A stretch of 64,000 bases of DNA from Thermodesulfobacteriota bacterium (GTDB lineage: Bacteria; Desulfobacterota; Desulfarculia; Adiutricales; JAGVGV01): NCBI GenBank assembly GCA_040755515.1, contig JBFMAW010000023.1:39383-103382 (forward strand), given 5' to 3'. The position numbers were made by a program, and so were the translations under genes. The notes beneath the pieces are model-generated. The model saw only the letters and a list, made by a program, of their open reading frames with translations. It was not told the DNA's origin and searched no databases. Positions 175-29,692 of the stretch are shown here, piece by piece. Each line of letters starts with the position of its first letter. Position 1 is the stretch's first letter.

Positions 175-1719
175 TCAATCACCGTCCAGCACGAGAATGA
201 AACAGCCGCCGCCTCCACCGCCCGATCCGCCTCCGCCGTTGCCGCCGGATTGACCGAAAATAGCCGTGACGGACTTGGATTCGCTTAGCACCACGGTGCA
301 AGCGCCGGTGCCGGAGCAAGCGTCCCGCCATCCCAGGAAAGTGGAACCGGCGTCGGGTGTGGCGGTCAAAACGACGACGGTGTTCTGGTCAAAACCCTGA
401 TGACAGGTCGGGCCGCAGTCAATACCGGCCGGGTTGCTTAGAACGCGGCCGCCGCCCGGACCTATTTTATAAACCACCAGCCCTACGGCGATCCGCTCGA
501 AGGAGCCGATGTCGCTGATAGCCACGCCGTCGCCGTCTCCGTCCCGGGGCCTGGTGGTCCCTCTTTGGTCGGCCAGGCCGGGCTGGACCGGATCGGCAGC
601 GTCCACGGCCGGGCTGCCCGTCAGGAGGGCGTGGGTCTGGGTCGGGCCGCCGTTGTCGGCCAGCGGGCCGAGTCTGGGATCAGGATCCACCAGGTCGCCG
701 GCCGTCAAGGTCACAACGCAGGAAGTTAAGTCGCCAATCAGGTTGTACCCGGCGCTGGTAAGCGTGCCGGCGCAGTCCGGTCCGTCAGGGCCGGCGTTCC
801 CGGCCAGGAGAGAACCCCGGGCCGTGATGGCGCCCGCGGCCCGCAGGCCGCCACCCCTGGTCGTGGTCGTATTGCCGGATACGGTGCAATGGGCCAGGTT
901 CACGTTGCCGCCGGCGGCGTTGTAGAGGCCTCCTCCGAAATTGGACGAGTTGCCGCTGATCGTGGAGTTGCTCAAGGTTAAAACGGGCGAGCCGGCGCCG
1001 TTGTATAATCCTCCACCTTGGGTCGCGGCCGTATTGCTGTTGAAGGTGCTGTTCTCGACGGTGGCCGAGGCCCCCCAGTCGTTATGTACGCCGCCGCCGT
1101 AATCGGCCGAGTTCCGGCTGAAGGTGCAGTCGGTGACGGACAGGGTGGCGTTAAGGCTGTTGTATACGCCGCCACCGGTATTAGTGGTAGTGTTGTCCGC
1201 GACCAGGCCTTCCCTCAAGGTCACCGAGCCGCCGGGATTATAGATGCCGCCGCCGAAATTGGCCGCGTTGGCGACCAGGCGGAAGCGGCTCAAGGCGAGG
1301 CTTCCGCTCACTAGGTAGAACCCGCCGCCCAGATTGGCGTTGCCGTTGGTGACGGACAGATCAGTGCAGTTGACCGCGGCGTTGCCGGCGATCTGGAAGA
1401 CTCCCTGGGTTCCGCCGCCGCTGACGGTCAATTGGTCCGCGCCCAGGCCGTTGATGGTCAGGTTCTTATCGATGACCAGGACGCCGGCGATCAAGGTAAT
1501 GGTTTGACCGGAAAGGGAGGAGTCAAAAACGATGGTGTCTCCGGCCGCGGCGTTGGCCACGGTCCAACGCAGGCAGCCCGGATCGGCCACGTTGTCCGTG
1601 GCTTTGGTCACGGTCCAGGTGGCGGCCCAGGAGGTCGAAGCCAGCAGGAGGCAGAAAAGAGGCAAGGCCAAAAAGAAGGCGGCCTGGAGACGCCTGGTGG
1701 AGAGACCCGCAATGATCAT
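175..1719 (-). CDS. Secreted right-handed parallel beta-helix repeat protein (Pmp/pectate-lyase-like GGGxYN repeats) with N-terminal signal peptide (RR-containing n-region, possibly Tat) and Gly-rich C-terminus
   Basis: 514-aa ORF. N-terminus MIIAGLSTRRLQAAFFLALPLFCLLLASTSWA/ATW looks like a signal peptide with an AXA cleavage site. There are more than 12 degenerate repeats of ~22 aa, N(T/S)xxxGGG(L/V/I)YN. Its start lies 4 nt downstream of the PAAR-like gene stop, indicating translational coupling. Confidence 0.65.
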   Translation of the reverse strand: MIIAGLSTRRLQAAFFLALPLFCLLLASTSWAATWTVTKATDNVADPGCLRWTVANAAAGDTIVFDSSLSGQTITLIAGVLVIDKNLTINGLGADQLTVSGGGTQGVFQIAGNAAVNCTDLSVTNGNANLGGGFYLVSGSLALSRFRLVANAANFGGGIYNPGGSVTLREGLVADNTTTNTGGGVYNSLNATLSVTDCTFSRNSADYGGGVHNDWGASATVENSTFNSNTAATQGGGLYNGAGSPVLTLSNSTISGNSSNFGGGLYNAAGGNVNLAHCTVSGNTTTTRGGGLRAAGAITARGSLLAGNAGPDGPDCAGTLTSAGYNLIGDLTSCVVTLTAGDLVDPDPRLGPLADNGGPTQTHALLTGSPAVDAADPVQPGLADQRGTTRPRDGDGDGVAISDIGSFERIAVGLVVYKIGPGGGRVLSNPAGIDCGPTCHQGFDQNTVVVLTATPDAGSTFLGWRDACSGTGACTVVLSESKSVTAIFGQSGGNGGGGSGGGGGGCFILVLDGD

Positions 1720-1723
1720 GTCG

Positions 1724-2131
1724 TCAGCTCAGCACCAGAACCTGGACCTGACTGGGCGCCAGGGCCACGCCGGGACAGTTCATGCTCTGGCCGTTCTGGC
1801 CGGTCGTGCCGGTCATTCTGACGGCCGGCGCTCCTCCCACCAGTACGGTGGCGCTGCCGATCAGGAACCTGGTCGGCCCCATGATCATGCCCGAGACCAC
1901 GCCCATCTGCACGCCGGCCTCATCGCCGTTGCTCAGGGGTATCTGGGACATCAGATTCAGGGCCGGCATGCCACTGACCAGGACCGTGCGGGCCGCGGTC
2001 GAGGGGTTGGCCGTGGCGTTCGTGGATATATTCGGATAGGGGACGGGCACGGGCGCGCCCGCCGCGGCCGGTGTGTTGCACACGTCCGGGAAGCCCAGGT
2101 TCATCCCGCCGGCCATGCACGACATGAACAT
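1724..2131 (-). CDS. DUF4150-family PAAR-like protein (T6SS spike-sharpening/tip protein)
   Basis: 135 aa, MFMSCMAGGMNLGFPDVCNTPAAAGAPVPVPYPNISTNATA...MIMGPTRFLIGSATVLVGG. This matches the DUF4150/PAAR-like pattern (GxPDVCxTP...PxPYPN), from memory of the family. It lies at the end of the vgrG operon. Confidence 0.7.
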   Translation of the reverse strand: MFMSCMAGGMNLGFPDVCNTPAAAGAPVPVPYPNISTNATANPSTAARTVLVSGMPALNLMSQIPLSNGDEAGVQMGVVSGMIMGPTRFLIGSATVLVGGAPAVRMTGTTGQNGQSMNCPGVALAPSQVQVLVLS

Positions 2132-2173
2132 TAGCTGACCCTCCTTTCACATATCCGGATGAAATGGATTCTC

Positions 2174-2827
2174 TCAGCCCAGATGTATCTGCTCGGCCTC
2201 CACCTTAACATGTTTTTCAGACTTGATAATGGAATTCCTGGAGTGCATGATCATGGTTCCGTCCACCAGCCACCGCGTCGAGGCGGCTTGAACCTCTTCA
2301 TGCTCGGCCACATAGCGATACGAAGCAGTCAGCCGTTGAACGACTCTTCGGAAGACCAGGTCCAGCGACTGTCCGATCATCTTGACCCGTTCCACTTGAC
2401 CGTGCAGCATCCGGCCGATATAGGTGAATTTTTTAAACCGGGCCAGACCGAAGGCGGTATTGACCTCCAGAGACTCGGAGGCGGCGGTGAGTTTGTTGGC
2501 GGAAGACAGGGTCAAATCCTGAGCGGCGGTGAGCCGCAGGTCGTCCCGACCCTCGATATGCACCGGCCCGTCAAAGATTATTCGTCGTTCCGAGTCCGGA
2601 CCGCTTGCCCGTTCCAGCACGGCCAGGATGTGGCTTTCACCGGTCGGCGCCAAAGCCAAAAGGACCCGATCCCCTTTTTCCGGTTTCAAGAGGCAACTGG
2701 CGGCCTGAACGGCTTTGATCCGGCCGAAACCATTCTCCACCATGAATAGCCGCTCCACCTCGGACAATACCTGTCCGTATTCCAAGACAGGATGGGAGTC
2801 GGTCATCTTATAAGCCAGGTTCTCCAT
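2174..2827 (-). CDS. DUF3540-like protein, a conserved partner of the DUF2169/pentapeptide/DUF4150 modules in vgrG islands (function unknown)
   Basis: 217-aa ORF tightly packed between the pentapeptide-repeat gene (24-nt gap) and the PAAR-like gene (42-nt gap). Size and position match the DUF3540 member of this recurring gene set. The family assignment is from memory of the gene neighbourhood and is not a direct motif match. Confidence 0.5.
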   Translation of the reverse strand: MENLAYKMTDSHPVLEYGQVLSEVERLFMVENGFGRIKAVQAASCLLKPEKGDRVLLALAPTGESHILAVLERASGPDSERRIIFDGPVHIEGRDDLRLTAAQDLTLSSANKLTAASESLEVNTAFGLARFKKFTYIGRMLHGQVERVKMIGQSLDLVFRRVVQRLTASYRYVAEHEEVQAASTRWLVDGTMIMHSRNSIIKSEKHVKVEAEQIHLG

Positions 2828-2851
2828 ATCGTCTCCTTTAATTGGCCAAGG

Positions 2852-3895
2852 TTACCAGTTTTCGGCTTCGGCCAGGTCCGGGTCAGTGCCCAGAGCAGCC
2901 TCGCGGTTGGCGCCCTCCCAATTGACGTGATCCATCAGGCTCCGGTGCAACTTGGTTCGATATAACCGGGCTGATCCGAAATCGGCCGCGGTCAGATCGG
3001 CGTGCGAGAAATCCGTATAGGCGCAGTTCGCGCCGATGAACAACGCTCCCTGGCAGAAGGCTCGCGTGAAGATGGCCTGCTCGATATCGGCCCTGGAGAA
3101 ATCAGCCCGCTTAAGCTTGCTTTTATCAAAGCAGGATTGATAAAGTCGGGCGTCCTTAAGGCTGGCCGCGGTCAGTGTGGTCTCGAGGAAGACGCTGCGT
3201 TTGCCTTTCACCGCGTCGAGCTTCGCCCCGGTCAGATCGGCGCCGGAAAAGTCGGATTGAGTGATATCCGCGCCGGTGAAGTCGCAGCCGGTGAAGTCCG
3301 CTCCACCGGCCTGGACCATGATGAATTCGGCGCCTCGGAAATCCTGTCCGGGCAGGCGACAATCCCGCAGAAAGGTCTTGTGCAATTTGCAGCCTTTGAG
3401 TCTGGCCCCGCTCAAGTCAGCTTCCATGAAGGTCGCCCTGGTCAGGTCCGCGCCGCTCAGATCCGCGTCAACCAAGGAAGCCTGGTAGAGTACCGTCCAG
3501 TTCAATACCGCTCCGGCCATGACGGCTTTATCCAGCCGGGCGTGATCCAATACGGCGCTGCTTAAGTCGGCCAGGGTAAGATCGGCGCCGGCCAGGTCCG
3601 CGCCGGTCAGGACCGCTTCGCGTAAAACCGCCTCTCGAAGAATGACCCCTTTGAGGTTCATCTTATGCCAGATGACTCCGGTCAGGTCCACTCCGGCCAT
3701 GATCGCCCCGAAGAGATCGCAGCCGGTAAAGCCGGTTCTTTGGATTTTGGCCACGGTGAAATTCACTTTTCTCAAGACCGTGTTCTCGAAGCGGCCGCCG
3801 GACAGGTCCGCGCCGGACAGATCGAGTCCGCTCAAGTCCACGTTCTCGATGGTGTCGTCGCGACGAATGGCGGCTAGGACTTCATCCCTGGTCAT
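2852..3895 (-). CDS. Pentapeptide-repeat protein
   Basis: 347 aa composed almost entirely of A(D/N)LxG / (S/T)GADL pentapeptide repeats (…VDLSGLDLSGADLSGGRFENTVLRKVNFT…ADLSGADLTRATFMEADLSGARL…). Start ATGA overlaps the stop of the upstream giant gene. Confidence 0.9.
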   Translation of the reverse strand: MTRDEVLAAIRRDDTIENVDLSGLDLSGADLSGGRFENTVLRKVNFTVAKIQRTGFTGCDLFGAIMAGVDLTGVIWHKMNLKGVILREAVLREAVLTGADLAGADLTLADLSSAVLDHARLDKAVMAGAVLNWTVLYQASLVDADLSGADLTRATFMEADLSGARLKGCKLHKTFLRDCRLPGQDFRGAEFIMVQAGGADFTGCDFTGADITQSDFSGADLTGAKLDAVKGKRSVFLETTLTAASLKDARLYQSCFDKSKLKRADFSRADIEQAIFTRAFCQGALFIGANCAYTDFSHADLTAADFGSARLYRTKLHRSLMDHVNWEGANREAALGTDPDLAEAENW

Positions 3896-6800
3896 GGCAG
3901 CAGGTCGGTCCGTTTATGCAGCTTGGTCATTTTAAGGTTGGCGCCATCGAGTTTGGTCCGGCCCAGCACGGACCGATGAAATTCAACGCCGTAAAGATTG
4001 GCGCCGGAAAAATCCGTGTCCACCAGTCTGGTCTTGCGCAGGGAACCATTTAAAAGGTTAATCCCCCGCAGGTCCCCCCCACTGAGGTCTGATTTGTTAA
4101 AGCTGGTCTGTTTGGCCTGGGTCCGGTTCAGGTTGGCTTGATGCAGGTCGCACTCCTCGATCAGGCTGCCTTCGAGGCGGGCGCCTCGGAAATCGGCCCG
4201 GTGCAACTCGGCCTGGCGCCAGCAGGCTTGGGACAAATCGGCGCCGGAGAAATCGGCGCCCGGCATCTCGGAGCCGCCGCCGATCCGGCTGTTGTGCATA
4301 TCCGTGTCGGTGAAATTGACTTCCCGGCCTTTCACCTGCCAGAAGAAGGCGGATCGGGCCTTCGCGCGGGAAAAGTCTGTCTTATCCAGTGCTGCTTCCG
4401 AAAAAAGCCCATGGCTTATATCCGCTCCGGCCAGGTTGGCCCCGGTAAGATCAGACGAGAGAAAGGAACCGCCATTGATTTTGGTATCATTCAGCCGGGC
4501 GTCTGACAGTTTCGCTCCTTCCAGAAGAGCACTTTCCATTTCGGCCCCTTGCAGATCGGCCGCGGTCAGGTCCGCGTTTTTCAGCAAGGCTTTCGTCATG
4601 GAAGAGCCGCTTAACACCGCTTTGGTAAACTTGGCTTGTTGAAAGAGCCCGCTGTCCAAACGGACGCCCTTTAACGAGGCCCCGGTGAAATCGGCCTCGT
4701 TGGCCACCGCCTCGGTCAGGTTGGCTCCATCGAGCTTTGAGCCGGCAAGGACGGTCTTTTCCAGAAAGGCTTCTTTTAAATCCAGGCCGGACAAGTCCAG
4801 GCCGGATAAATCGAGACCGGACAAGTTCTTGCCGGCCAGGCTTAGGCCTTGCTTATGGCGTTCGATCACATCTTCCCGGGTTAGAGGCTCCAGGTCATCC
4901 ACATCAATACCCGCTTTTTTAAGCTGTCCCAAGGCCCAGTCCGGGACGGGGGGCCGTGATTCGGCCTCGGCGATCCTGGCCATCCCGGCCTGGTATCTTT
5001 CCGCGGCCGCGCCGGTGACCCGCTTTATCTTGCCTTCGGCCTCGTCGAGTTTGGCCCAGACCTCGGGGTCTACCCGATCCACTTGTTTCAACTTTTCACG
5101 AGCCTGACCTAGGGAAGCGAGCATCGGCGCTGGGTCGAAAGGATTGTCGCCCAGGGCGACCTCTTTCCTGTCCAGGATCGTGTCCGGATTCAGGCCGGAT
5201 TTCCTGAGAGGTTCGTCGAATTTTTTCAGTTCCTGCTGGAAGTGGGCCTGCATCTCTTTTTTCATGGCCGCGATGTTTTCCAGCTCTGGTTTGAGGGCGG
5301 CGTCCACGCTGCCTCTTATTTTTTGATCCAGGGCTTGAACGTCAGGCAAGGGAAAATCTTGGGTGGCTTTTCTTTCTTGGCGCTCTTTTTCGATCAGGGC
5401 CAGTTCTTCCTCGATTTGGGTGGATAATTCCGGCGGGAGCGCGGCCAAAAGCCACGGTCTCAAGTCAAAACCGGTCCGGCGCGCCTCGAGCAGGTTCCGG
5501 CCCACGGGCAGGGGCAGGATTTTGGCTTGGGGATGAACATCGAGCCAGGCCGACAGTGTCTCGTCCACTTGTACTTCGGACCAGGCCGGCCCGGCGATCA
5601 GGAAAGCGCGGGCTGGCTCGATCAACTTGGCGGTTTCCTCGGCCGGCTTCCGGCTTGGATCCGGGGCCGCGATTATGGAGCAAAGGTCTGAAGCCTCTTG
5701 CCGGGCCAGCCAGGCCTCCAACTCGTCCGCCACCCGCAGGAAGACGTCAGGCCGTCGCGGGCTGATAAAGGTCAAAGCCAAGTCTTTCGATCCTTCGACC
5801 GGGAAATCAGTCCCGGCCTCGACCGCGTCACCGGTCCGGATAGTGATCCGGTCCAGGATGGCGCCGTCAAAATGAGGTATCACCAAGCCCGCCGGCAGGC
5901 GCTGATTCCTCGGCCGGCCCTGGTCGTCCCAGGCTTCTTTCAAACCCCAGGCGGATCGCGGTTCGGATAATTCCACCGGATTATAACCCAGCCAGGCCCG
6001 TCTGATGGTCTGGTGGGACAGGCCATGGGAGCGAAGTATTTTCATCAGTTCCTGGTTTTCCTGCAATCTCTGTCGGCAATCTTCCACGAAGCGGAAGCCT
6101 TGTTCCCGCCAGAGCTGATCCGGTTTAGGTTCGAAAAGCATGTCCGGTTCAAAACCCTCGGTCGGGATGCCTCTGGCTTCCAGTCGTTTCTTCTGCTCTT
6201 GGAAGGCCTTTTTAATTTCCTGTTGATGTTGAGTTATCTCGGCCTGGGCCTGGGCCACCTGGCCCGGAACTTCCTGAATGGCCGCGGCGGCCGCGGCCAG
6301 TTCACCCTGGGCCTCCTCGAGCATCGAGAGGTCTATTTTGATCAGGTGGCCGAATTCGGCCTTCAATTCAACGAGTCTCTTCCTGGCCTCGGCCAATCTA
6401 GTTGCCGCCTCGGTCATCTGCCCGGCGCCGCCGGCGGTCAGTTCCGATAAAGGCTGGGTGGAGGCCGGCGCCCGTCCCGCGGCCTCGGCCAAGGCCTCGT
6501 CGAGAAGTTGAGGTATTTTCTCCAGTTCGGCCCTGGCTGCCGCCAGCTCTTTTTCGGCCTGCTCCAAGGGGGTCATATCCACGGCCGGCACCGGCCATTT
6601 CATTCTTTCCTTTTCCAACTCGAGGTATTCTTCCAGGGTCCGGGGCGGGTCATGCAGTTTTTCCGTAAGCAGGAACAGCCGTCGGACGTCCGAGGCCTCG
6701 TCATCGGCCACTTCGGTCACGCCCCGGAAGATCAATACGCCCCGCCAGGCGTTGGGTAAGAGCCAGACCGTATCCAGGTTGGTCTTGACCTCCTTGAAGA

Positions 6801-7644
6801 CGGCGTCGGAAGGACTTCGCCTATCGTTCTTAAGTTGGGTGGCGAAACATTTCACCGCGACGCCGGGCAGGTGCGCCTTGATAAGGGGCCGGGCGTTGTT
6901 CATGTTTTCGATGAGCAGGGCTTCGTCGCCGCGCCAGAACCCGGTCAATCGTTGGTCCGGCGGCGCCGCGTTGAAAAAAGTATAGTCCATGTCCTCGGGG
7001 AAGTAAGGCCAGCGTTCCCTGAGCCATTTGGCGTCATATGTTCCCAGCTTACTCGATCTTTGCGGCCAGGTGATCTCGTACGGGCCGAAGCCGGCCGGAT
7101 TCGGCCGGTCCTCGGGCGAAGAGATCAAATGGCCGGGATCTTCCACGTTGGGCGCCAGGACCATAATTTCGCCCGAAGGCAGGCGGACGGGGTTGAGGCC
7201 CTTGCCCAGGGGGTTGCGCGGAAAGTCCGGACCGCCGAAAGCGTTGCGATAACCGACCTCGATGGCCTGAAACGGTTGGGGATCGCTCAGGGTCAGTAAA
7301 CCATTGGGACGGCGGCGCCAATGGCGACGGCCGAAGATGTAAAGACTCTTGTTGATGGGGCCGAGGCGCAAGGAAACTCTCAGGCCGGTAGTGGTCAGGC
7401 CGCCCGGAGCAAAGCACCGGCCCAGCATCAAAACTTCGCCTTGCGGCTTGGGCAGGCCTTGATCGAAGATGGTTTCCGCTCCCAGTTGGTCCTGAACGCA
7501 TGGCCATAGCTCCTGCTCCGGGAGCAGGTCGGCCGGCTCATTCAGATCGAAGAAGAGCAGGATCGAGACGGTCAGGTAGTATTTATCCGCCAGTCCGAAA
7601 TGATTGAGCAGCAGCGACTGGTCCTGTTCTTTTACCACTTCCAC
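3892..7644 (-). CDS. Giant DUF2169-domain protein fused to a coiled-coil linker and C-terminal pentapeptide-repeat domain
   Basis: 1250 aa. The N-terminal ~330 aa (…FPRNPLGKGLNPV…YDAKWLRERWPYFPEDMDYTFFNAAPPDQRL…) resembles DUF2169, a T6SS-associated adaptor-like domain. The middle ~550 aa is E/A/K/Q-rich with heptad character. The last ~340 aa are pentapeptide repeats (NLSGLDLSGLDLSGLDLKEAFL…ADLTAADLQGAEM…). Confidence 0.8.
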   Translation of the reverse strand: MEVVKEQDQSLLLNHFGLADKYYLTVSILLFFDLNEPADLLPEQELWPCVQDQLGAETIFDQGLPKPQGEVLMLGRCFAPGGLTTTGLRVSLRLGPINKSLYIFGRRHWRRRPNGLLTLSDPQPFQAIEVGYRNAFGGPDFPRNPLGKGLNPVRLPSGEIMVLAPNVEDPGHLISSPEDRPNPAGFGPYEITWPQRSSKLGTYDAKWLRERWPYFPEDMDYTFFNAAPPDQRLTGFWRGDEALLIENMNNARPLIKAHLPGVAVKCFATQLKNDRRSPSDAVFKEVKTNLDTVWLLPNAWRGVLIFRGVTEVADDEASDVRRLFLLTEKLHDPPRTLEEYLELEKERMKWPVPAVDMTPLEQAEKELAAARAELEKIPQLLDEALAEAAGRAPASTQPLSELTAGGAGQMTEAATRLAEARKRLVELKAEFGHLIKIDLSMLEEAQGELAAAAAAIQEVPGQVAQAQAEITQHQQEIKKAFQEQKKRLEARGIPTEGFEPDMLFEPKPDQLWREQGFRFVEDCRQRLQENQELMKILRSHGLSHQTIRRAWLGYNPVELSEPRSAWGLKEAWDDQGRPRNQRLPAGLVIPHFDGAILDRITIRTGDAVEAGTDFPVEGSKDLALTFISPRRPDVFLRVADELEAWLARQEASDLCSIIAAPDPSRKPAEETAKLIEPARAFLIAGPAWSEVQVDETLSAWLDVHPQAKILPLPVGRNLLEARRTGFDLRPWLLAALPPELSTQIEEELALIEKERQERKATQDFPLPDVQALDQKIRGSVDAALKPELENIAAMKKEMQAHFQQELKKFDEPLRKSGLNPDTILDRKEVALGDNPFDPAPMLASLGQAREKLKQVDRVDPEVWAKLDEAEGKIKRVTGAAAERYQAGMARIAEAESRPPVPDWALGQLKKAGIDVDDLEPLTREDVIERHKQGLSLAGKNLSGLDLSGLDLSGLDLKEAFLEKTVLAGSKLDGANLTEAVANEADFTGASLKGVRLDSGLFQQAKFTKAVLSGSSMTKALLKNADLTAADLQGAEMESALLEGAKLSDARLNDTKINGGSFLSSDLTGANLAGADISHGLFSEAALDKTDFSRAKARSAFFWQVKGREVNFTDTDMHNSRIGGGSEMPGADFSGADLSQACWRQAELHRADFRGARLEGSLIEECDLHQANLNRTQAKQTSFNKSDLSGGDLRGINLLNGSLRKTRLVDTDFSGANLYGVEFHRSVLGRTKLDGANLKMTKLHKRTDLLP

Positions 7645-7707
7645 GTTTATCGCCCTCCAAGGCCGATGCGCCGGGCCTCGTTGGTGATGGTGAAGAAGGC
7701 CTTGACT

Positions 7708-10700
7708 TCAACCAAGAATCACATTTCCCTTCAGGCAGGCTATTCTGAAATCAAACAAAGCCATATCGGTCTTATCGATGGCTGTCTTGTTTTGTCTGAT
7801 ATCGAGTTCGTTTTGATCAATCCTTTGATTGGTTCGCCGGATCGCGGTGGTGATTCTCCCGACGCGTGTGTTGAAGTCTTCCAGGCGTTGTTGGTGCATC
7901 CTCACGACCCGCTGGCCGAGTTCGATGTCTCTTTCAGCGGTATCCACACGTTCATTGGTAATTCTAATGTGTCTCCGAATGGCCCTGATTTGATTGGTGA
8001 AGACTCGAACATCTTGTTGGCCGGCCGTTATGGACTGTTCATGTGCCAAAACCATGTGGTTGGTGGCTTGCAAGTGGGTCTGCCAGGCGTTAATTCTATT
8101 GTCAATCGCCTCGATCTTTTTGTCCGAAGCGTTGAAGTGGCCGTTCTGCCACTCGTTGTGCCAGGCCAGGCTTCCTTCGAACTCGACGCCGATATGTATC
8201 TCCGAAGCCAGGCCGACCGTGAAGTAGCTCTCCCAGCCGCCGACGTACTGCATTTCTTCGCCATAGACCTTCCTGCTTTCCCCGGCTTCGATCTCCCAGT
8301 CGGCGAAAGAGCCGACCAGGCCCCGAAAGGCGCCCACGGTATGCATCTGAATTCCGTGTTTCCCTTCGCCGCCTTCGCCCTTCTCACCCTTTTCGCCCTT
8401 TTCGCCTTTTTCCCCTTTTTCGCCCGTAGCGCCGGTGGCGCCAGTGGGACCCCGGGCGCCCGTGGGTCCGATCGCGCCGGTGGCGCCTTTAGGTCCCAGA
8501 GGTCCGACCGGGCCGGTGGCGCCCTTTTCACCCTTCAGATCAACATAGGTGTAGTCAGCCTCATCAGACGTCTTCACTCCCAGGCGGGTGCCGTCCCATT
8601 TGTATTCAAAGTTGGCCCCGCGGTCGCCCTGATCGCCTTTGGCGCCCGGCGCCCCCGGCACTCCAGGCAGTCCTTGTTGACCGCGGTCGCCCTGGTCGCC
8701 CTTTGCTCCGGTTGCTCCACTGGCGCCGGTCGCACCGGTCGCACCGGTGGCGCCGGCGGGACCGGTTGGTCCAGCCGGTCCTGGAATACCCGGAGGGCCT
8801 GGCGGCCCTGGTTCGCCTTTTGCTCCGGCCTCGCCCTTTTCACCCGTGGGTCCGGTAGGCCCGGTCGCGCCGGCGGGGCCGGTTGGTCCTACGGCTCCGG
8901 CCGGTCCGGGAATACCCGGGGGTCCGATCGGTCCGGCTTCACCTTTTGCTCCGGCCTCGCCCTTTTCACCCGCGGGTCCGGTAGGCCCGGTCGCGCCGGC
9001 GGGGCCGGTTGGTCCTACGGCTCCGGCCGGTCCGGGAATGCCCGGAGGTCCGATCGGTCCGGCTTCGCCCTTGTCACCGCGGTCGCCCTTTTCGCCCAAC
9101 GGTCCTTGCGGTCCCGCTGGCCCCTGAGGTCCCGGAGGCCCCTGCGGCCCGGGGGGGCCTGGAGGTCCGGGCGGGCCGGGTTCTCCGTCTCCGGTGGGTG
9201 GGTCGTTGGGCGCGCCGATGCGAATCCAGGAGTTGGCCGTGGGCGACAACAGCACGATCCTTTGGCTGCCAGCCGCGTCTTCGATGTGTATCTTGTTCTG
9301 TCCGGCCGTGGTGATGATGTTCATGGTGCTGTTGTCGGCCGTGACCGGGCTGGGATACTCGGGGTTCGGCACCGCTCCGGTGATGATCGGCCGATCCGGG
9401 TCTCCCTCGATGAAGGTCAAAAGCACTTCCGTTCCTTTGTGCAGGGGGAAGTGCAGGCCGTGGTCCGAACCTCCGTAAGGTTGCATCATGCGCAGATAAG
9501 TCGAGGCCTTGCCGTCCTTCCGGCCCGAAAGATCAAAAGGCAGGACCACCTTATACCGGCCGTATTCGTCCAGTTCGGCGTATTCGCCGCTCGCGGCCGC
9601 GTCCACCACGGCGTTGATCACTCCGTAGAACCTTGGTTTTTCGCTGGCCAATTCGGCCCGGAACTGGGCCTGGGCCGGAATGGCCACAAACGAGTTGCGG
9701 TAATAGAGCTGCTGTTCTCGCTCGCTCAGAGCGCGCTTGAGGCCGTCTATCATGTACGCCGTCTGAGTGCCTTCATGCTCCATCTTGATGGTCAGGTACT
9801 TCTGATTGAAGTTTTCCTGATAATGATCCTGTAGCTCGAAGGTGTATCCTGGTCGGAGATAGGGCACCGCGCTCTCGCCGTAAAATTCGCGTTCCCGGCA
9901 GAGATAGGCTTCGGCTCGAACCTGGGCCAGCGTGTCGCCCTCTTCCGGGGTGAGGAAATGGTCGCCGTAAACGTAGATCTGCCCTCGGCCTTCAGGCAGG
10001 ATTCCGGCCCGGCCGGTCAGTTCGAGAGATGGCGTCAGGTAATTGTAATCCTTGAGCAGAACCTCTTGGGGCAGCATATGCTGGCGGCAGACATAAGATT
10101 GGATGACTTCCCGCATATGTCCGGCTTCCAAGCCGGAAGGGGGGGAATAGTAAAGAGTTCGACCTTGAGGCATGTCGGTGTGGGCGATGCCCGTATCGGT
10201 GATGATGACCTTTTCGGCGCCGGAGTCCTGTTCGAAGTAGTAATAGAGCCCTTGATGTTCGAGCCAGCGGGAGACGAAGTTCAGATGGCTTTCCCGGTAC
10301 TGGCTGACATATTCGAGTGATTGATAGGTCTTGGTGGTCTTTATCTCGAAATCCCGGGAAGTCAAGCCGCCGTCCTTGAGGACTTCGACTATTATGTCCG
10401 GCAGGTTCATCTTGAGGAATATCTGGTTATGGAAGGTCAGGGAGAGCCACCAGAGCCTGGGCGCCAGCACGGCCCGGTAAAAGACGTATTCGCCGAAGGC
10501 CTGCCGTTGTTCAAACCGGCTGAGAATGCCGTGAAAGGGCACGTCGCCTTCTTCGCGCCGGATGATGAAGGTGGCCGGCTTTTGTATTATCCGGCCCAGG
10601 TCCAGGTCCCGGCGGTCCGAGACCAGGTCAATCTCGAAGTGGTAGCACTGATTCAAGCCTTCGCTGCCTTTGAAGCTGACCACGTCAAAGGCGTCGGTCG

Positions 10701-10749
10701 GCAGGGCCTGGGAGACAAAGGCGAATTTTTCTTCGGTGATGAACCTCAT
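7708..10749 (-). CDS. vgrG: T6SS spike protein VgrG with long collagen-like (Gly-X-Y) triple-helix extension, a globular C-terminal domain and a terminal coiled coil
   Basis: 1013 aa. Classic VgrG gp27/gp5 core (…[48 protein letters not shown]…). About 230 aa of uninterrupted GXY repeats follow ([25 protein letters not shown]…). Then a ~35-aa non-collagen spacer, a second GXY block ending in (GEK)5, a ~130-aa globular region, and a ~100-aa heptad-like C-terminus. Confidence 0.9.
8695..9072. repeat. Tandem 126-bp (42-aa, 14 GXY triplets) direct repeats inside the vgrG collagen-like region: two near-identical units at 8821-8946 and 8947-9072, plus a more diverged third copy upstream
   Basis: The string tgctccggcctcgcccttttcaccc… recurs at 8821 and 8947. 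The two units differ at only a handful of positions, and the encoded peptide …[32 protein letters not shown](A/T)[11 protein letters not shown]… is duplicated. A 9-bp (cccttttcg)n microsatellite encoding (GEK)5 lies at ~8385-8432. Confidence 0.8.
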
Positions 10750-10952
10750 GCTAAACCTCCCCCGCGGGTCAGGATTGAGGCGTTTGGGACGGAGAGCAGC
10801 CCCGGCCGAGGAGGGCCGGGCTGGCCGGAGTCAATAAGGCCGCCGCTTCGGAATGAGCGGTTTAAATCATGTAATCCTCCGGTACGGCGTCATTATAGGT
10901 GAATACCGGAAAAAATCAATCCGGAAGCAGAGGCCTGGTTCTCCGGTCAGGC

Positions 10953-14608: not shown

Positions 14609-15010
14609 ATGATCGACTTGGTCAAATGGTTTAAAAGGCTCTTCCGGAACAACCGCCGCCAGCATAAGCGGTACAAGGTTCTGGATCAAGCCTACTGCGT
14701 CATCGGCTCGGACCCGGCCGAAGGCGAAAGGATGCGCCTGCTGGACATAGGCGAAGGCGGATTGGCCATGGCCTATGCCTTTTCGGACCCATTGATCCAG
14801 AAGACGGGCGAAATAAGCCTCATGGCCGGCGACAAGGTATATATCAAAAATGTCCTGGTCGAAACCATCACCGATCTGGAGATCAAGGATCTGTCCGAGA
14901 CCATGGTCACCATGAGGCGCCGGGGAGTACGTTTTAAAAGGCTTAAAAACGTGGATAAGAAACACCTGATGGATTTTATTAAAAACTGTACGGTTTGCGG
15001 GCCGGATTAG
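14609..15010 (+). CDS. Single-domain PilZ protein (c-di-GMP binding)
   Basis: RRQHKRYKV (RxxxR motif) and DIGEGGLAM (D/NxSxxG motif). Confidence 0.75.
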   Translation: MIDLVKWFKRLFRNNRRQHKRYKVLDQAYCVIGSDPAEGERMRLLDIGEGGLAMAYAFSDPLIQKTGEISLMAGDKVYIKNVLVETITDLEIKDLSETMVTMRRRGVRFKRLKNVDKKHLMDFIKNCTVCGPD

Positions 15011-15111: not shown

Positions 15112-15498
15112 ATGAGGACCGGCAGAGGACTGATCAGCCGGCTGATTAAACCCAGGCGCTTCAAACGTTTTCAAGCCAGGGACGGCGCCTTCGTTATCTT
15201 GGGTTCATCGCCCGCCCGTGGTCCAAAGTTAAAGATTCTGGATATAGGTCAGGGTGGTCTTTCCTTTCTATACCAGGGCAACCCCGCGGAACAGGAATAC
15301 CACGGTCAGCTCAGCCTCATGGCCGGAAGGGGACTCTACCTGGATTACGTGCCCTTCGAAGCCGTATCCGACGTTGGTCTGAGCGAACTGACGGGTCAGG
15401 AAAGCCCGTGGCGGCGCCGCAGCATACGCTTCAAGCAATTGGGATATCTGGACGTCAGGCAGCTTCGGGAGTTCATTCGCCGTCACTGCCGCTTCTGA
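15112..15498 (+). CDS. Single-domain PilZ protein, tandem paralog of the previous gene
   Basis: PRRFKRFQ (RxxxR) and DIGQGGLSF (DxSxxG); same architecture and length as the upstream PilZ. Confidence 0.75.
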   Translation: MRTGRGLISRLIKPRRFKRFQARDGAFVILGSSPARGPKLKILDIGQGGLSFLYQGNPAEQEYHGQLSLMAGRGLYLDYVPFEAVSDVGLSELTGQESPWRRRSIRFKQLGYLDVRQLREFIRRHCRF

Positions 15499-23355: not shown

Positions 23356-25128
23356 ATGAACAAGAAAGTGTTTTTTATTGTATTGGCGCTTCTTATTATT
23401 TACCCCGCCGCCTCATGGGCCAGGGACTGGTATGTCCGGCCGGCCGGCGGCCAGTACGGAACACAAGACGGCACCAGCTATGACAACGCCTGGAACGGCC
23501 TGCACGCGATCAAATGGCTCGAGGGCGGCGTGCAGCCGGGCGACACCTTGTGGGTCTGCGGCCTGCATGTTTGGGATATGAAGACCAAGTCCTACATTGA
23601 CAAACAGGCGGTCATTCCAACGATCAACGGCGCGAGCGATACCCAGAGAATCATGATCCGGGGCGACTATTCTAACGATCCGGGCATTGTCTGGGGTGCG
23701 TACAGAATGAGCAGTTCTCCCTGGGTGGACGAGGGCGGAGGAGTGTGGAGTACCCTTCTTGCGGCCAATTCATTTCCTGAATGGTTCTTCCAGGATATCG
23801 GTAAACCAAAACCGGATTCCTATATTGTTCTGAACAGGCAAAAAAGCATTGACGGCGTCCGAGCCAATCCCGGGTCGTTTTACAGTGAAACCTATACCGC
23901 GGGTTCCAAGCTATACGTTAAAACTACTGACAGCCTGCCACCTCAAGGACGAATTTACGCTAACAGATACGGGTATAGATTCAACCTGGCGGATAATAAA
24001 TTTATAACTTTTTATAAGCTGAAAATGTTTAATTTCTTTCGTATATCCGGGATAAAACCCGTTTCCCCTCCCAGCAATATTACTTGGCAGGGCTGCACCC
24101 TGACTCATGGTGAACACAGTATCATATGGCTCTATGATGGCATGGATAATATGAAAGTCATTGACTGCGAACTGGCTTGGGCCGGAAACGGCATTTACAA
24201 CATCAGTAGTACTCTGGACAAAGCGGCCAGCAATTACCACTTCAAAGGTAATTATATCCATGACATGGGCGTCCGGGAAGCCACCCAGAACAACGATGGC
24301 CATTGCGTCGGGGCTCAAGGAGGGCGGAACGGAATCATAGAGGATAACGTTTGCGTAAACTGCGGTACCGGGCCATTGATTTACACTGGCGCCAGCCAGA
24401 TCGCCACCAACAACATTATCAGAAGGAACCTGGTCAAGGACCCGCATACGCTCGGCGGCGCCAATGGATACGGAATAGCTTTGCTGACCACCAACCTGAA
24501 TACTTCCGACAAGAGCGGCAATATAGTGGTCCAAAATATAGTCATCAACGCGAAGATAGCCTTCAGGTTTCATTGGGAACAGGTTCAACTCGTGGCTAAC
24601 AACGTGGCTTATAATTGCGAAATAGGCCTGGAGTCAAAGCGTAACTACAATGGTCTAGGGGCCAATGTCTATTTTGTCAATAACGTGTTTTTGAACACCA
24701 AGCAATATCACATCAACTGGGACACGGGCGCAAGTAATTTCGTTATATACGCCGACCGTAACATTTATTATCCGTCAACGGGTGCCATGTTCAGGTATAG
24801 GGGAAAGGACTATACTTGGGATGGTTGGCGCGCCTTGACCCGCCCGTCTTGCCTGTTTGACCCGAAGTCCTTCGCTTTGGACCCGAAATTTAAGAACATC
24901 ACGGGCAAGTTCACTGACGCTTTGGACTTCATGTTAAAAAGCGACTCGCCAGCCATTGGTACCGGACAGACGGTCCAGGTAATCACTAGTGATTTTGCCG
25001 GCGGGCCTATCCTGGGCACGCCGGATATCGGCGCTTTTCAGCATACCACGATTCCGCGGGGAGGTATTTCCGCCACTGCGCCAGGGTCGGGACCAATGCC
25101 TGCCCCAGGAGTGCCTGGCACTCCTTGA
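23356..25128 (+). CDS. Secreted right-handed beta-helix protein (possible polysaccharide lyase/depolymerase or EPS-modifying enzyme)
   Basis: Signal peptide MNKKVFFIVLALLIIYPAASWA. The region after the signal peptide (WYV…GG…G.S…) is typical of pectate-lyase-fold proteins, and Asn-rich beta-helix rungs are present (NNVAYNCE…NNVFLNTK). Confidence 0.6.
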   Translation: MNKKVFFIVLALLIIYPAASWARDWYVRPAGGQYGTQDGTSYDNAWNGLHAIKWLEGGVQPGDTLWVCGLHVWDMKTKSYIDKQAVIPTINGASDTQRIMIRGDYSNDPGIVWGAYRMSSSPWVDEGGGVWSTLLAANSFPEWFFQDIGKPKPDSYIVLNRQKSIDGVRANPGSFYSETYTAGSKLYVKTTDSLPPQGRIYANRYGYRFNLADNKFITFYKLKMFNFFRISGIKPVSPPSNITWQGCTLTHGEHSIIWLYDGMDNMKVIDCELAWAGNGIYNISSTLDKAASNYHFKGNYIHDMGVREATQNNDGHCVGAQGGRNGIIEDNVCVNCGTGPLIYTGASQIATNNIIRRNLVKDPHTLGGANGYGIALLTTNLNTSDKSGNIVVQNIVINAKIAFRFHWEQVQLVANNVAYNCEIGLESKRNYNGLGANVYFVNNVFLNTKQYHINWDTGASNFVIYADRNIYYPSTGAMFRYRGKDYTWDGWRALTRPSCLFDPKSFALDPKFKNITGKFTDALDFMLKSDSPAIGTGQTVQVITSDFAGGPILGTPDIGAFQHTTIPRGGISATAPGSGPMPAPGVPGTP

Positions 25129-25446
25129 GGCCTGAACCGTTGCCGAGAGGTGTAGTATAAAGCCGACGGCCGTGAGAGCGGTTCGGTACAGAGGAAGAGT
25201 TATTGGAATACGGAGTGGATCAGGCTGAATAAATTATTAATCTTTGTGCTTCTATATTGTGTAGGCATGGAATAGACTTAGTTCTTAAGAAATGGAAGCA
25301 GTTTCATCGGGGTCAAGGCCGAATCCTTAATCAACTTACGCCCCTTGACTCCGATTTTTATTTTGACCGGAAGCCACGAGGCCTCATGACCTTTATAGAG
25401 GCTAAATCAGCATAATTTCGCTCTTGAGGTAAATGGAGGTGGTGTT

Positions 25447-26589: not shown

Positions 26590-26639
26590 GAAAAGAAATA
26601 AAATTATACAAAAAAATCTATATATATGGATAGGCAAGA

Positions 26640-29413: not shown

Positions 29414-29692
29414 AATATTTATGGAAATAAAGTTCTCCAAAAAAATCAATTCGATTACGAGGCCAATATTTTCGTATATTAAGATCAAGTTCAACATAAA
29501 TATTGGATTAGAAAATGAAACATTTATAGAGAAGTTTAAAGGTAACGAATATGAATAAATGAGGATGTTACATGTAATCGGTAAAGATAACGGTTTCATA
29601 GCTATGTAAAAAGCATTATACAGTATAAACATGAAAAAAATATTGAATAAATCGCGCGAGAGAATATTTTTATAAACAAGAGGAATGGTATT

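Follow-up and report, generated by a model that had tools for sequence, protein, structure and literature searches.

A probable Class III Tvp spike-loading cassette with a collagen-like insertion in VgrG in a Thermodesulfobacteriota bacterium

In a Thermodesulfobacteriota bacterium, five genes at the left edge of the 64-kb window, the whole stretch of DNA analyzed here, very likely form a Class III Tvp cassette that loads a VgrG spike (1724-10749), of the tagAB/tagB/tagC/tagD type and of synteny type C. Synteny type C is the class of Sachar et al. that holds the vgrG / DUF2169-PPR / PPR / DUF3540 / DUF4150 set. The identification rests on domain content and order, which match the published class exactly, and on the PIPY motif of the cap, here PVPY. 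While this gene module is already known, what stands apart is a collagen-like insertion in VgrG, and the collagen-like stalk is the sole unusual feature of the cassette.

Gene content and the proposed loading pathway

Six co-oriented ORFs occupy positions 175-10749 of the minus strand, on which all features given coordinates here lie, with gaps of 63, -4, 24, 42 and 4 nt. Their packing is tight and operon-like, with coupled or overlapping starts. In order, they are vgrG (tssI; 7708-10749, 1013 aa), tvpAB of the long-linker type (tagAB; 3892-7644, 1250 aa, MEW6265910.1), tvpB for a stand-alone pentapeptide-repeat protein (tagB; 2852-3895, 347 aa), tvpC (tagC; 2174-2827, 217 aa, DUF3540), a PAAR-like cap gene consisting of the DUF4150/PIPY domain only (1724-2131, 135 aa, MEW6265907.1) and a gene for a 514-aa parallel-beta-helix-like protein with predicted export (175-1719, MEW6265906.1). 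A convergent acyl-CoA-ligase-like gene lies directly left of the island. In the 203-nt gap upstream of vgrG, a candidate sigma-70-like promoter, TTGATT-16-TATAAT (10892-10919), agrees with the consensus at 10 of 12 positions; this is a consensus match only, and such sites are no more numerous in the region than expected after shuffling. All five cassette ORFs are intact and full length relative to their profiles. The ORF positions and gaps given in the initial annotation are exact, and its five family assignments (VgrG, DUF2169 plus pentapeptide repeats, pentapeptide repeats, DUF3540 and DUF4150 PAAR-like) hold in the HMM searches it had proposed, with DUF2169, DUF3540, DUF4150, Pentapeptide and Phage_GPD matches far above chance. 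Its observations are thus confirmed apart from a coiled coil and a one-sided statement about core genes, both discussed below; its interpretation as a whole is partly supported.

The role of the pentapeptide-repeat and DUF3540 proteins in T6SS, initially considered not established, has been worked out experimentally in the homologous cassette of Serratia marcescens (Monlezun et al., EMBO J 2026, PMC13373197). In the Serratia model, a DUF3540 trimer (TvpC) replaces VgrG, and the cap is assembled on this trimer under TvpAB and TvpB before being passed to VgrG (PMC13373197). DUF2169 proteins chaperone DUF4150/PIPY caps, and both families are reported to be found strictly together with T6SS spikes (Sachar et al., JBC 2025, PMC11883445). 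Chaperone, adaptor or cargo functions had been suggested for the pentapeptide and DUF3540 components; these studies point to chaperones and a VgrG surrogate, and away from cargo (PMC13373197, PMC11883445).

By homology to the Serratia system, TvpC would trimerize and mimic the tip end of VgrG, and the small DUF4150/PIPY cap would fold on this surrogate tip. The DUF2169 domain of TvpAB would cover the cap's hydrophobic patch, and the pentapeptide-repeat beta-helices of TvpAB and TvpB would wrap round the cap assembly. The real VgrG would then replace TvpC, and the capped, chaperoned spike would proceed to a T6SS baseplate encoded elsewhere, with the chaperones remaining in the cell. Domain searches of the five proteins revealed no recognizable toxin domain in the cassette. 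Effector activity, if any, would reside in the VgrG C-terminal region, as suspected for Serratia VgrG1; otherwise the spike would be purely structural.

In TvpAB, the DUF2169 (TvpA) domain (aa 22-307, 6724-7581; PF09937, 2.6e-82) is a putative chaperone of the PAAR-like cap by analogy with characterized systems (PMC11883445, PMC13373197). It is followed by a linker of ~600 aa (aa 308-917, 4894-6723), without Pfam or PDB sequence matches, in which charged helical stretches lie on either side of a conserved W/G/P-rich segment (~aa 500-740). Prolines occur in every 40-aa window of the linker, which was initially described as one ~550-aa coiled coil, and the longest run without proline is 61 aa; the spread prolines and the conserved segment rule out that description. 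Nor is the "giant" size of the protein unusual: because 54 of the 71 TvpAB proteins of related loci have a homologous linker of 565-702 aa, the long-linker form is the normal one in Thermodesulfobacteriota. The pentapeptide-repeat (TvpB-like) domain (aa ~918-1240, 3925-4893; Pfam Pentapeptide, 1.8e-49) scores below the cut-offs of the Qnr, MfpA and PipB models. TvpB itself matches Pentapeptide at 4.4e-62; the first 4 nt of its gene coincide with the last 4 of tvpAB, and a stand-alone tvpB holds the equivalent position in related loci.

TvpC matches DUF3540 (PF12059, 6e-55) over the full length of the profile. Its AF2 model has an N-terminal OB-like barrel (pLDDT 74-90), among whose Foldseek matches are OB folds as well as the CIS spikes 6rbk_C, 4s37, 3qr8 and 6j0m_A. 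TvpC is proposed to act as a trimeric VgrG stand-in in the pre-complex, a mimicry only partly reproduced here because the AF2 monomer is helical in the part that the published trimer model builds as a beta-prism. Profile-profile comparison found no sequence similarity between TvpC and VgrG, which counts against the cassette reading. The PAAR-like cap, MFMSCMAGGMNLGFPDVCNTPAAAGAPVPVPYPN, matches Tox-PAAR-like/DUF4150 (PF13665, 1.3e-35) without a toxin extension, and its PVPY conforms to the P(I/V)P(Y/F) motif as defined by PMC11883445.

A collagen-like insertion in VgrG

VgrG is matched by Phage_GPD (3e-78), TIGR03361 (1e-105; 354 bits, cut-off 186) and Collagen (1e-37), and its core shares 58-66% identity with Thermodesulfobacteriota VgrGs. 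The gp27/gp5-OB core leads into a short beta-prism start, the collagen-like insertion and a clade-typical C-terminal domain. The insertion comprises 275 aa in total, and the collagen noted initially is borne out: tract 1 (aa 522-713, 8611-9186), which carries the Collagen match, contains 64 uninterrupted Gly-X-Y triplets, and the GEK-rich tract 2 (aa 740-796, 8362-8532) another 19, with glycine first in 83/83 triplets and the whole perfectly in frame. The tracts are separated by a 26-aa non-collagen break (8533-8610), a possible hinge, for which a family search gave no match. Inside tract 1 lies a 126-nt tandem repeat of 2.6 copies (8770-9097), from which it follows that the tract grew by duplication.

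The insertion site is the family's hypervariable linker between VgrG core and C-terminal domain, and the flanks, GAPNDP before the collagen and GIQMHT... after it, both align to the VgrG family. In 34 VgrGs whose partner TvpAB has the long linker, the part beyond the core measures 210-275 aa, and the 503 aa found here equal 228 aa plus the 275 aa of collagen. Given these alignments and lengths, the tract is, as judged from sequence, a real in-frame insertion. Only one of ~186 relatives (P0038/L199) has a similar tract, a shorter Gly-X-Y stretch at the same site in a VgrG that also belongs to a tvp array, and no report of a collagen-like tract inside a T6SS spike protein was found in the literature searched. 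Since VgrG is a trimer, the insertion most plausibly forms a triple-helical stalk. If rigid, the stalk would measure ~70 nm and would have to be fitted into the T6SS, a point against the cassette reading.

The C-terminal domain (aa 797-1013, 7711-8361) has a beta-rich part, then a heptad-periodic part and a hydrophobic end. It aligns with the C-terminus of a 769-aa VgrG (P0001, 26% identity) and with a family block starting GIxxxT. An unreliable AF2 monomer prediction places helices at 876-981 and 989-1011. That the presumed docking site of the cap is heptad-periodic and predicted to be helical likewise weighs against the assignment.

Genomic context and alternative readings

Outside the island, 30 ORFs, which make up most of the larger ones from 13.9 to 64 kb, were scanned against Pfam and gave no T6SS core family, which counts against the cassette reading. 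The window itself spans 64 kb of a 110.5-kb contig, up to 46 kb of which lies outside it, and with the island at the left edge the absence of core genes is shown on one side only. The earlier statement that no core occurs within 64 kb therefore stands for the ORFs scanned, whereas the label "orphan" is one-sided. The activity of the cassette depends on a T6SS machine outside these ORFs. The five-gene order recurs, often in tandem arrays, in 77 loci found with the TvpC profile, and one relative's array (L200) lies 2.5 kb from tssJ and tssK; this conserved synteny, with sheath-like genes near seven of the loci, speaks for the cassette reading. Because a sheath-like gene occurs within 10 kb in only 7 of the 77, the orphan arrangement is the rule for such cassettes in this clade.

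The 514-aa gene follows the PAAR-like gene at a distance of 4 nt and is therefore probably co-transcribed with the cassette, but is judged to lie outside the T6SS module. Its product has a signal peptide, MIIAGLSTRRLQAAFFLALPLFCLLLASTSWA, followed by ATW, as well as GGGxYN-type repeats, a choice-of-anchor Q domain (NF041518, 1e-19) and an InlB B-repeat-like domain, and the 77 related loci contain no homologue, other genes taking its position. T6SS substrates normally lack signal peptides. On these grounds, the protein is predicted to be a Sec/Tat-exported surface protein, and its initial designation as a beta-helix cargo candidate is rejected.

A cargo reading, in which the pentapeptide-repeat proteins, DUF3540 or both would be secreted, for instance as DNA-mimic effectors, and the DUF2169 adaptor would load the 514-aa protein as a T6SS cargo effector, is highly improbable. 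In its favor, DNA mimicry is known among pentapeptide-repeat proteins, and the repeats also occur in type III effectors, PipB2 among them, although the corresponding model matches here fall below cut-offs; the probable co-transcription of the 514-aa gene would also fit. In Serratia, however, secretion of TvpAB or TvpB was never observed, and VgrG1-dependent firing needs TvpAB, TvpB and TvpC, which form defined pre-complexes (PMC13373197). With the export signal and the 0/77 distribution of the 514-aa protein, the cargo proposal is already largely refuted. Export would also suit a factor for immunity or self-protection against a VgrG spike active in the periplasm, similar to Serratia Vai1 in role but not in sequence. 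Where T6SS toxins act in the periplasm, the matching immunity proteins are exported, Vai1 is encoded within the Serratia cassette and faces the periplasm, and the 514-aa gene is just 4 nt from the cassette. Yet the protein, with its size, anchor domain and B-repeats, looks like a surface protein or adhesin, lacks DUF3192 and is conserved with no related cassette, and Vai1 directly follows vgrG, a position left empty here (63-nt gap); such a role is very unlikely.

A stranded or decaying island, whose genome lacks a working T6SS or whose VgrG has been inactivated by the collagen, is unlikely. The lack of core genes among the ORFs scanned, the outlier status of the insertion among ~186 relatives and the recent tandem duplication within it would be expected of decay, but the ORFs are intact with coupled or overlapping starts, the orphan state is usual for the clade, the insertion keeps both frame and glycine register, and a second VgrG in a tvp array carries a shorter tract at the same site. 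Phage and eCIS fibers often contain collagen-like segments. Together with TvpC fold matches to Afp8, Pvc8 and pyocin spikes, this could suggest that the vgrG-like gene derives from a phage-like or extracellular contractile injection particle, but such an origin is extremely improbable: VgrG exceeds the cut-off of the T6SS-specific TIGR03361, no sheath, tube, baseplate or terminase-type genes were found among the window ORFs scanned, a close relative's array adjoins tssJ and tssK, and DUF2169 with DUF4150 is strictly tied to T6SS spikes as reported (PMC11883445).

Comparison with known systems

The Class III Tvp cassette of Serratia marcescens Db10 (VgrG1, TvpAB, TvpB, TvpC, Paar1; Monlezun, Earl & Coulthurst, PMC13373197) has the same five families in the same order: vgrG, DUF2169-PPR fusion, stand-alone PPR, DUF3540 and toxin-less DUF4150 cap. 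Both cassettes are without a recognizable effector domain, and in both VgrG exceeds the minimal form. The DUF2169-PPR linker, in contrast, measures ~600 aa here and ~240-270 aa in the Pseudomonadota-type TvpABs of related loci, and the VgrG tail, instead of forming a continuous beta-prism, consists of a collagen-like tract and then a separate C-terminal domain. The present cassette also lies outside a T6SS core cluster, in the phylum Thermodesulfobacteriota, and lacks a Vai1/DUF3192 gene after vgrG, an absence that counts against the assignment.

Burkholderia T6SS-5 has the same accessory gene set, tagAB-5 / tagB-5 / tagC-5 / tagD-5 with vgrG-5 (Shalom et al. 2007, reviewed in PMC13584744 and PMC6335564; B. 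glumae work, PMC8747328), and all four tag genes are required for sheath assembly, Hcp secretion or virulence (PMC13584744, PMC6335564, PMC8747328). Those genes lie within the T6SS-5 cluster, whereas this cassette stands alone, and VgrG-5 has a characterized C-terminal fusogenic effector domain where the domain here is uncharacterized. In the DUF2169-PIPY pairs of synteny types A/B (P. aeruginosa PA0097/Tse7, V. parahaemolyticus VP1398/VP1415, A. tumefaciens Tap2/Tde2; PMC11883445), DUF2169 is likewise paired 1:1 with a DUF4150/PIPY cap bearing the P(I/V)P(Y/F) motif beside vgrG. Their DUF2169 is single-domain, however, PPR proteins are missing, TvpC is DUF6484 or absent, and the cap is usually toxin-fused rather than a bare 135-aa domain.

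The collagen-like tract itself resembles streptococcal Scl1/Scl2, Legionella Lcl and phage tail fibers in its long unbroken Gly-X-Y, Pro-rich composition, charged triplets (GEK, GDR), tandem-repeat structure and obligate-trimer host protein. A signal peptide, an LPXTG anchor and an Lcl C-terminal domain are absent from VgrG, which scores far below the cut-offs of the Scl and Lcl models. Unlike in Scl, Lcl and the phage fibers, the collagen-like tract here is internal to a T6SS spike protein.

The cassette as a member of a known spike-loading family

The six minus-strand ORFs of the island and their spacing (gaps of 63, -4, 24, 42 and 4 nt) were exactly reproduced in an ORF listing of the window, and searches with Pfam and NCBIfam models matched the proteins to every family proposed in the initial annotation, namely VgrG, DUF2169 with Pentapeptide, Pentapeptide, DUF3540 and DUF4150. 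The vgrG gene (7708-10749, minus strand) encodes 1013 aa with matches to Phage_GPD (3e-78), Phage_base_V and Collagen (1e-37). Its product passes the T6SS-specific VgrG/TssI model and contains the gp27-like and gp5 OB-fold core, scoring 353.9 bits with TIGR03361 (cut-off 186.35) and 289.5 bits with TIGR01646 (cut-off 121.8). It ends 63 nt before tvpAB (3892-7644, minus strand; NCBI MEW6265910.1), whose 1250-aa product carries DUF2169 at aa 22-307 (PF09937, 2.6e-82, 277 bits against a cut-off of 25, profile positions 4-294 of 294) and pentapeptide repeats at aa ~918-1240 (1.8e-49). Overlapping tvpAB by 4 nt, tvpB (2852-3895, minus strand) encodes a stand-alone pentapeptide-repeat (PPR) protein of 347 aa (4.4e-62). 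The 217-aa TvpC (2174-2827, minus strand), identical in sequence to the database protein P0121, matches DUF3540 over aa 18-217 and the whole profile (PF12059, 6.1e-55, positions 1-199 of 199). The PAAR-like cap (1724-2131, minus strand, 135 aa; NCBI MEW6265907.1) belongs to Tox-PAAR-like/DUF4150 (PF13665, 1.3e-35), and its sequence ...APVPVPYPN... includes PVPY, which fits the motif P(I/V)P(Y/F). Membership of the two PPR proteins in the Qnr, MfpA, PipB or HetL groups was considered and rejected, as all of these models fell below cut-off for both (Qnr, for example, at 85-88 bits against 240); the one exception among these family models was the short Alr5209 repeat model, which TvpB passed (129.5 bits against 125).

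Judged by its sequence, the cassette is a Class III Tvp system, equivalent to synteny type C, since every sequence-level hallmark is present: a TvpA, a TvpAB fusion with TvpB downstream, a long TvpC of the DUF3540 type (not DUF6484), a PIPY cap, and a co-oriented vgrG directly preceding tvpAB. The resulting order, vgrG-tvpAB-tvpB-tvpC-paar, is shared by most of 77 related loci (local phmmer annotation). This gene set was first named tagAB/tagB/tagC/tagD in the Burkholderia T6SS-5 (reviewed in PMC13584744), and the tag genes have been studied genetically in B. glumae (PMC8747328). Sachar et al. described it as the DUF2169 'synteny type C' and demonstrated that DUF2169 chaperones DUF4150 caps, renamed PIPY domains after their P(I/V)P(Y/F) motif (PMC11883445). 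[quoted passage not shown] Firing that depends on VgrG1 in Serratia marcescens requires every one of TvpAB, TvpB, TvpC and Paar1; a TvpC-TvpAB-TvpB-Paar1 pre-complex gives way to a VgrG1-TvpAB-TvpB-Paar1 complex, and neither TvpAB nor TvpB was ever found among secreted proteins (PMC13373197). The module is thus not functionally unexplained, as had been supposed: its role is already in the literature (PMC11883445, PMC13373197), and in this respect the locus only adds a member from an under-studied anaerobic phylum.

Serratia TvpC has been modelled as a trimeric OB-fold followed by a beta-prism that mimics the VgrG tip (PMC13373197). An AlphaFold2 monomer model of the window TvpC (mean pLDDT 62) predicts that aa 14-72 form an OB-like barrel (pLDDT 74-90), with a low-confidence region at aa 86-144 and a helical C-terminus. 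Foldseek retrieved OB folds together with the contractile-injection spike proteins Afp8 (6rbk_C), R2 pyocin spike (4s37), P2 gpV (3qr8) and Pvc8 (6j0m_A), at E values of about 1e-3 to 1e-2. The predicted N-terminal barrel and these spike matches lend partial support to TvpC as a VgrG mimic; hhalign detected no sequence similarity between TvpC and VgrG. The monomer model also gives a helix of 80 residues (pLDDT about 60-78) for the DUF3540 segment whose published model is a trimeric beta-prism. Single-chain helices predicted for trimeric spike proteins should not be taken as coiled coils.

Genomic setting and the position after the cap

The 77 loci were found in representative genomes with a TvpC profile and belong mostly to Syntrophales, Syntrophorhabdaceae, Desulfobacterales and Desulfovibrionales, with a few in Nitrospirota, Myxococcota and Betaproteobacteria. 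Their cassettes are frequently doubled or tripled in tandem, and Class III cassettes in Thermodesulfobacteriota and neighbouring lineages often lie far from T6SS core genes. A sheath-like gene occurs within 10 kb of only 7 of the 77 cassettes, and the tandem array of one further locus, L200, is situated 2.5 kb from tssJ and tssK. Together, these neighbourhoods fit auxiliary cassettes, and the window cassette would likewise serve a T6SS encoded elsewhere. The initial annotation had described the island as an orphan with no core genes within 64 kb. A Pfam scan of 30 further ORFs, which make up the majority of the larger ORFs from 13.9 to 64 kb, found no core gene among them; this result covers the window, whereas up to 46 kb of the 110,542-bp contig, and the rest of the genome, lie beyond it.

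The scanned ORFs encode a cytochrome bd oxidase, an Rrf2 regulator, polysaccharide-synthesis proteins, TctAB transporter subunits, a periplasmic solute-binding protein, sugar-acid enzymes, a PilT-like ATPase, an aldehyde ferredoxin oxidoreductase (AFOR) and glycine-cleavage P proteins. On its left, the island is bordered by the C-terminus of a convergent acyl-CoA-ligase-like gene (the first 150 nt of the window), and on its right by a TPR/SLT lytic transglycosylase. With a sigma-70-like promoter candidate upstream of vgrG (consensus match), these flanking genes indicate that the island is self-contained. The transglycosylase was considered as a T6SS partner and set aside, as none of the related loci has a homologue.

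Several features elsewhere in the window deserve mention in their own right. Adjacent small plus-strand ORFs at 14609-15010 and 15112-15498 (133 and 128 aa) share similar arginine-rich N-termini and look like paralogues; neither has a Pfam match. At the edge of the polysaccharide locus, a 590-aa ORF (23356-25128) begins with a clear signal peptide, MNKKVFFIVLALLIIYPAASWA, and has no Pfam match at 1e-5. GC content drops sharply to 36-37% at 25400-29450, from about 58% in the surrounding DNA. The three plus-strand ORFs in this low-GC island (380, 535 and 389 aa) all lack a Pfam match at 1e-5, and the first and third have similar-looking N-termini. Because the island comes right after genes for UDP-glucose dehydrogenase, a Wzz-like protein and an epimerase, it looks like a horizontally acquired portion of the polysaccharide locus.

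The last gene of the island (175-1719, minus strand; NCBI MEW6265906.1) encodes a 514-aa protein that had been put forward as a cargo candidate. Because only 4 nt separate it from the cap gene, it is probably co-transcribed with the cassette. A T6SS cargo effector would be expected to lack a Sec/Tat signal, to recur beside vgrG, PAAR or adaptor genes and to carry a toxin or known effector marker domain. The properties of the 514-aa protein speak against that role. The N-terminus, MIIAGLSTRRLQAAFFLALPLFCLLLASTSWA|ATW, reads as a signal peptide, in which an RR-containing basic n-region is joined by a hydrophobic core and a site of the AxA type. The only recognizable domains, choice-of-anchor Q (1e-19) and an InlB B-repeat-like domain, are typical of surface proteins, and the tail is Gly-rich. 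Moreover, none of the 77 related loci has a homologue. The cargo assignment was dropped on these grounds, and the reading of this surface-type protein as an immunity factor is possible but unlikely.

In the related loci, the position after the cap is taken by another vgrG cassette, a protein of ~258 aa, a 622-aa fusion or a fused VipA/VipB-like sheath gene. The ~258-aa protein (~255-275 aa) is encoded immediately after the cap gene of 13 Class III cassettes from Thermodesulfobacteriota, Nitrospirota and Polaromonas (for example L003:7048-7824 and L059:19003-19782) and is missing from the window. It is conserved, with an N-terminus of MKKVWITALDKD...YGL..GHFW.DD and no Pfam or NCBIfam match, and may be an undescribed sixth cassette component, or an effector or immunity gene. 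The second occupant is a fusion of ~622 aa joining a GlcNAc-type glycosyltransferase (PF11397) to radical-SAM and SPASM domains. It starts 0-1 nt after the PAAR-like gene and is full-length in nine loci (L019:11020-12888 and eight others of Syntrophorhabdus type), with a 109-aa fragment in L070; it is an odd, tightly coupled partner of the spike cassette. Lastly, single genes of 527-730 aa adjoining tvp cassettes (L002:11124-12707; also L004, L042, L046, L066 and L012) match both VipA/TssB and, in their N-terminal part, VipB/TssC, below the family cut-offs, and may encode fused or divergent sheath proteins.

The TvpAB linker

The 1250-aa TvpAB had been singled out as a giant. Among 71 TvpABs of the related loci, the spacer between DUF2169 and the PPR region is 236-270 aa long in 16 and 565-702 aa long in 54, and the long spacers are homologous to that of the window (phmmer E down to 1e-94), so this size is the norm of the clade. 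Nor does a ~550-aa coiled coil describe the linker: no 40-aa window is without proline, and stretches lacking proline reach 61 aa at most. An alignment of 37 sequences instead reveals a conserved W/G/P-rich block at ~aa 500-740 with charged, helical-looking stretches on either side. The spacer has no Pfam match, its profile found no significant sequence match in the PDB, and searching for homologues of the linker yielded one protein. The possibility that linker length scales with the VgrG tail was rejected, as the pairing is the reverse of what a simple match in length would give: TvpABs with long linkers accompany VgrG tails of 210-275 aa (n = 34), and the longest VgrGs (tails of 426-505 aa) accompany short-linker TvpABs. 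Both linker types can share one tandem array (L007, L200). In Thermodesulfobacteriota and neighbouring lineages, Class III cassettes mainly have the long-linker TvpAB with its conserved insert, a subtype that is not described in the literature consulted, and it widens a published classification that was built on Pseudomonadota models.

A collagen-like insertion in VgrG

The collagen-bearing VgrG is a new variant, and the interest of the locus rests on its possible stalk, not on the function of the module. The core of the protein (aa 1-~515) shares 58-66% identity with VgrGs of ~750 aa from the same phylum. It is followed by 64 perfect Gly-X-Y triplets (aa 522-713) and, after a break of 26 aa, by 19 further triplets (aa 740-796), placed between the conserved 'GAPNDP' and 'GIxxxT' blocks. 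This site is the hypervariable linker of the family, whose length in homologues is 10-60 aa and which in some is rich in Pro and Thr. The part of the protein beyond the tract (aa 797-1013) can be aligned to the C-terminal domain found in ordinary VgrGs such as the database protein P0001 (26% identity over 211 aa). The window VgrG reaches 503 aa past its core, the sum of 228 aa and a 275-aa insertion. Within the tract, at 8770-9097 of the window, lies a tandem repeat of 126 nt (14 triplets) in 2.6 copies at 88% identity, from which it follows that the tract grew by tandem duplication. Repeats of this type readily change in length and are easily mis-assembled in MAGs built from short reads. The aligned flanks, the tail-length sum and the 126-nt repeat together show that the insertion is real and in frame; it is also rare.

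Its rarity is evident among the relatives. Pfam Collagen is annotated in none of the best 120 VgrG homologues, and in the related loci not one of the 66 full VgrGs contains a run of five or more Gly-X-Y triplets. A single exception is known in P0038, a database VgrG of 993 aa from another tvp array (L199), with 14 triplets at the same site. A search with aa 501-1013 of the window VgrG was dominated by giant collagen-like proteins, with no VgrG core or C-terminal domain among the 150 matches listed, and so is uninformative on how common collagen VgrGs are. At the DNA level, a metagenome pattern of N-D-P followed within 34 nt by 12 or more Gly-X-Y triplets occurred in at least 120 stretches, with no VgrG core among the matches listed, and a metagenome scan with the VgrG C-terminal domain found no relatives. 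A literature search likewise found no published report of a collagen-like VgrG.

In the 64-triplet tract, proline is the X residue of 28 triplets and the Y residue of 16, and GEK and GDR triplets are numerous. Such triplets in a protein that forms trimers suggest that the tract could fold as a triple helix, which would be coaxial with the spike because VgrG is a trimer. A surface adhesin of the Scl/Lcl type would combine collagen-like triplets with a signal peptide and an LPXTG anchor or Lcl C-terminal domain; the corresponding models match in the Gly-X-Y part only and stay far below their cut-offs (NF038329, 118 bits against 325; NF038330, 103 against 400; NF046116, 97 against 500), and this candidate was rejected. 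A functional insertion, in which the 64 and 19 triplets build a triple-helical stalk hinged at the 26-aa break, is a tentative proposal that we consider rather unlikely. Such a stalk would span about 55 + 16 nm between the hub and the cap-bearing tip domain, and gain or loss of tandem repeats could tune its length.

The domain beyond the tract is itself predicted with modest confidence. An AlphaFold2 monomer model of aa 797-1013 (mean pLDDT 68) begins with 79 irregular residues and continues with helices at 876-981 and 989-1011; sub-threshold matches to FliJ, tropomyosin and SMC-type models are consistent with heptad periodicity in this region. A C-terminal coiled coil was not accepted on this model: the same method renders the published beta-prism of TvpC as a helix, and the VgrG helix is therefore not taken as established.

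If the stalk were true, it would represent an undescribed T6SS spike architecture, and the question would become how the baseplate and membrane complex house it. Extended reach, a flexible tether or host-matrix mimicry are possible purposes. A VgrG with 83 triplets, if secreted, would probe the axial length tolerated by a T6SS spike, and a collagen triple helix, if formed, would be the first found in a T6SS component according to the literature search. Neither the long-linker subtype nor the collagen stalk overturns current understanding. VgrGs of known Class III systems tend to have an unusually long continuous beta-prism, as a tendency and not a requirement. In the window VgrG, only ~45 aa of beta-prism-like sequence come after the OB domain, then collagen (aa 522-796) and then a domain of 217 aa.
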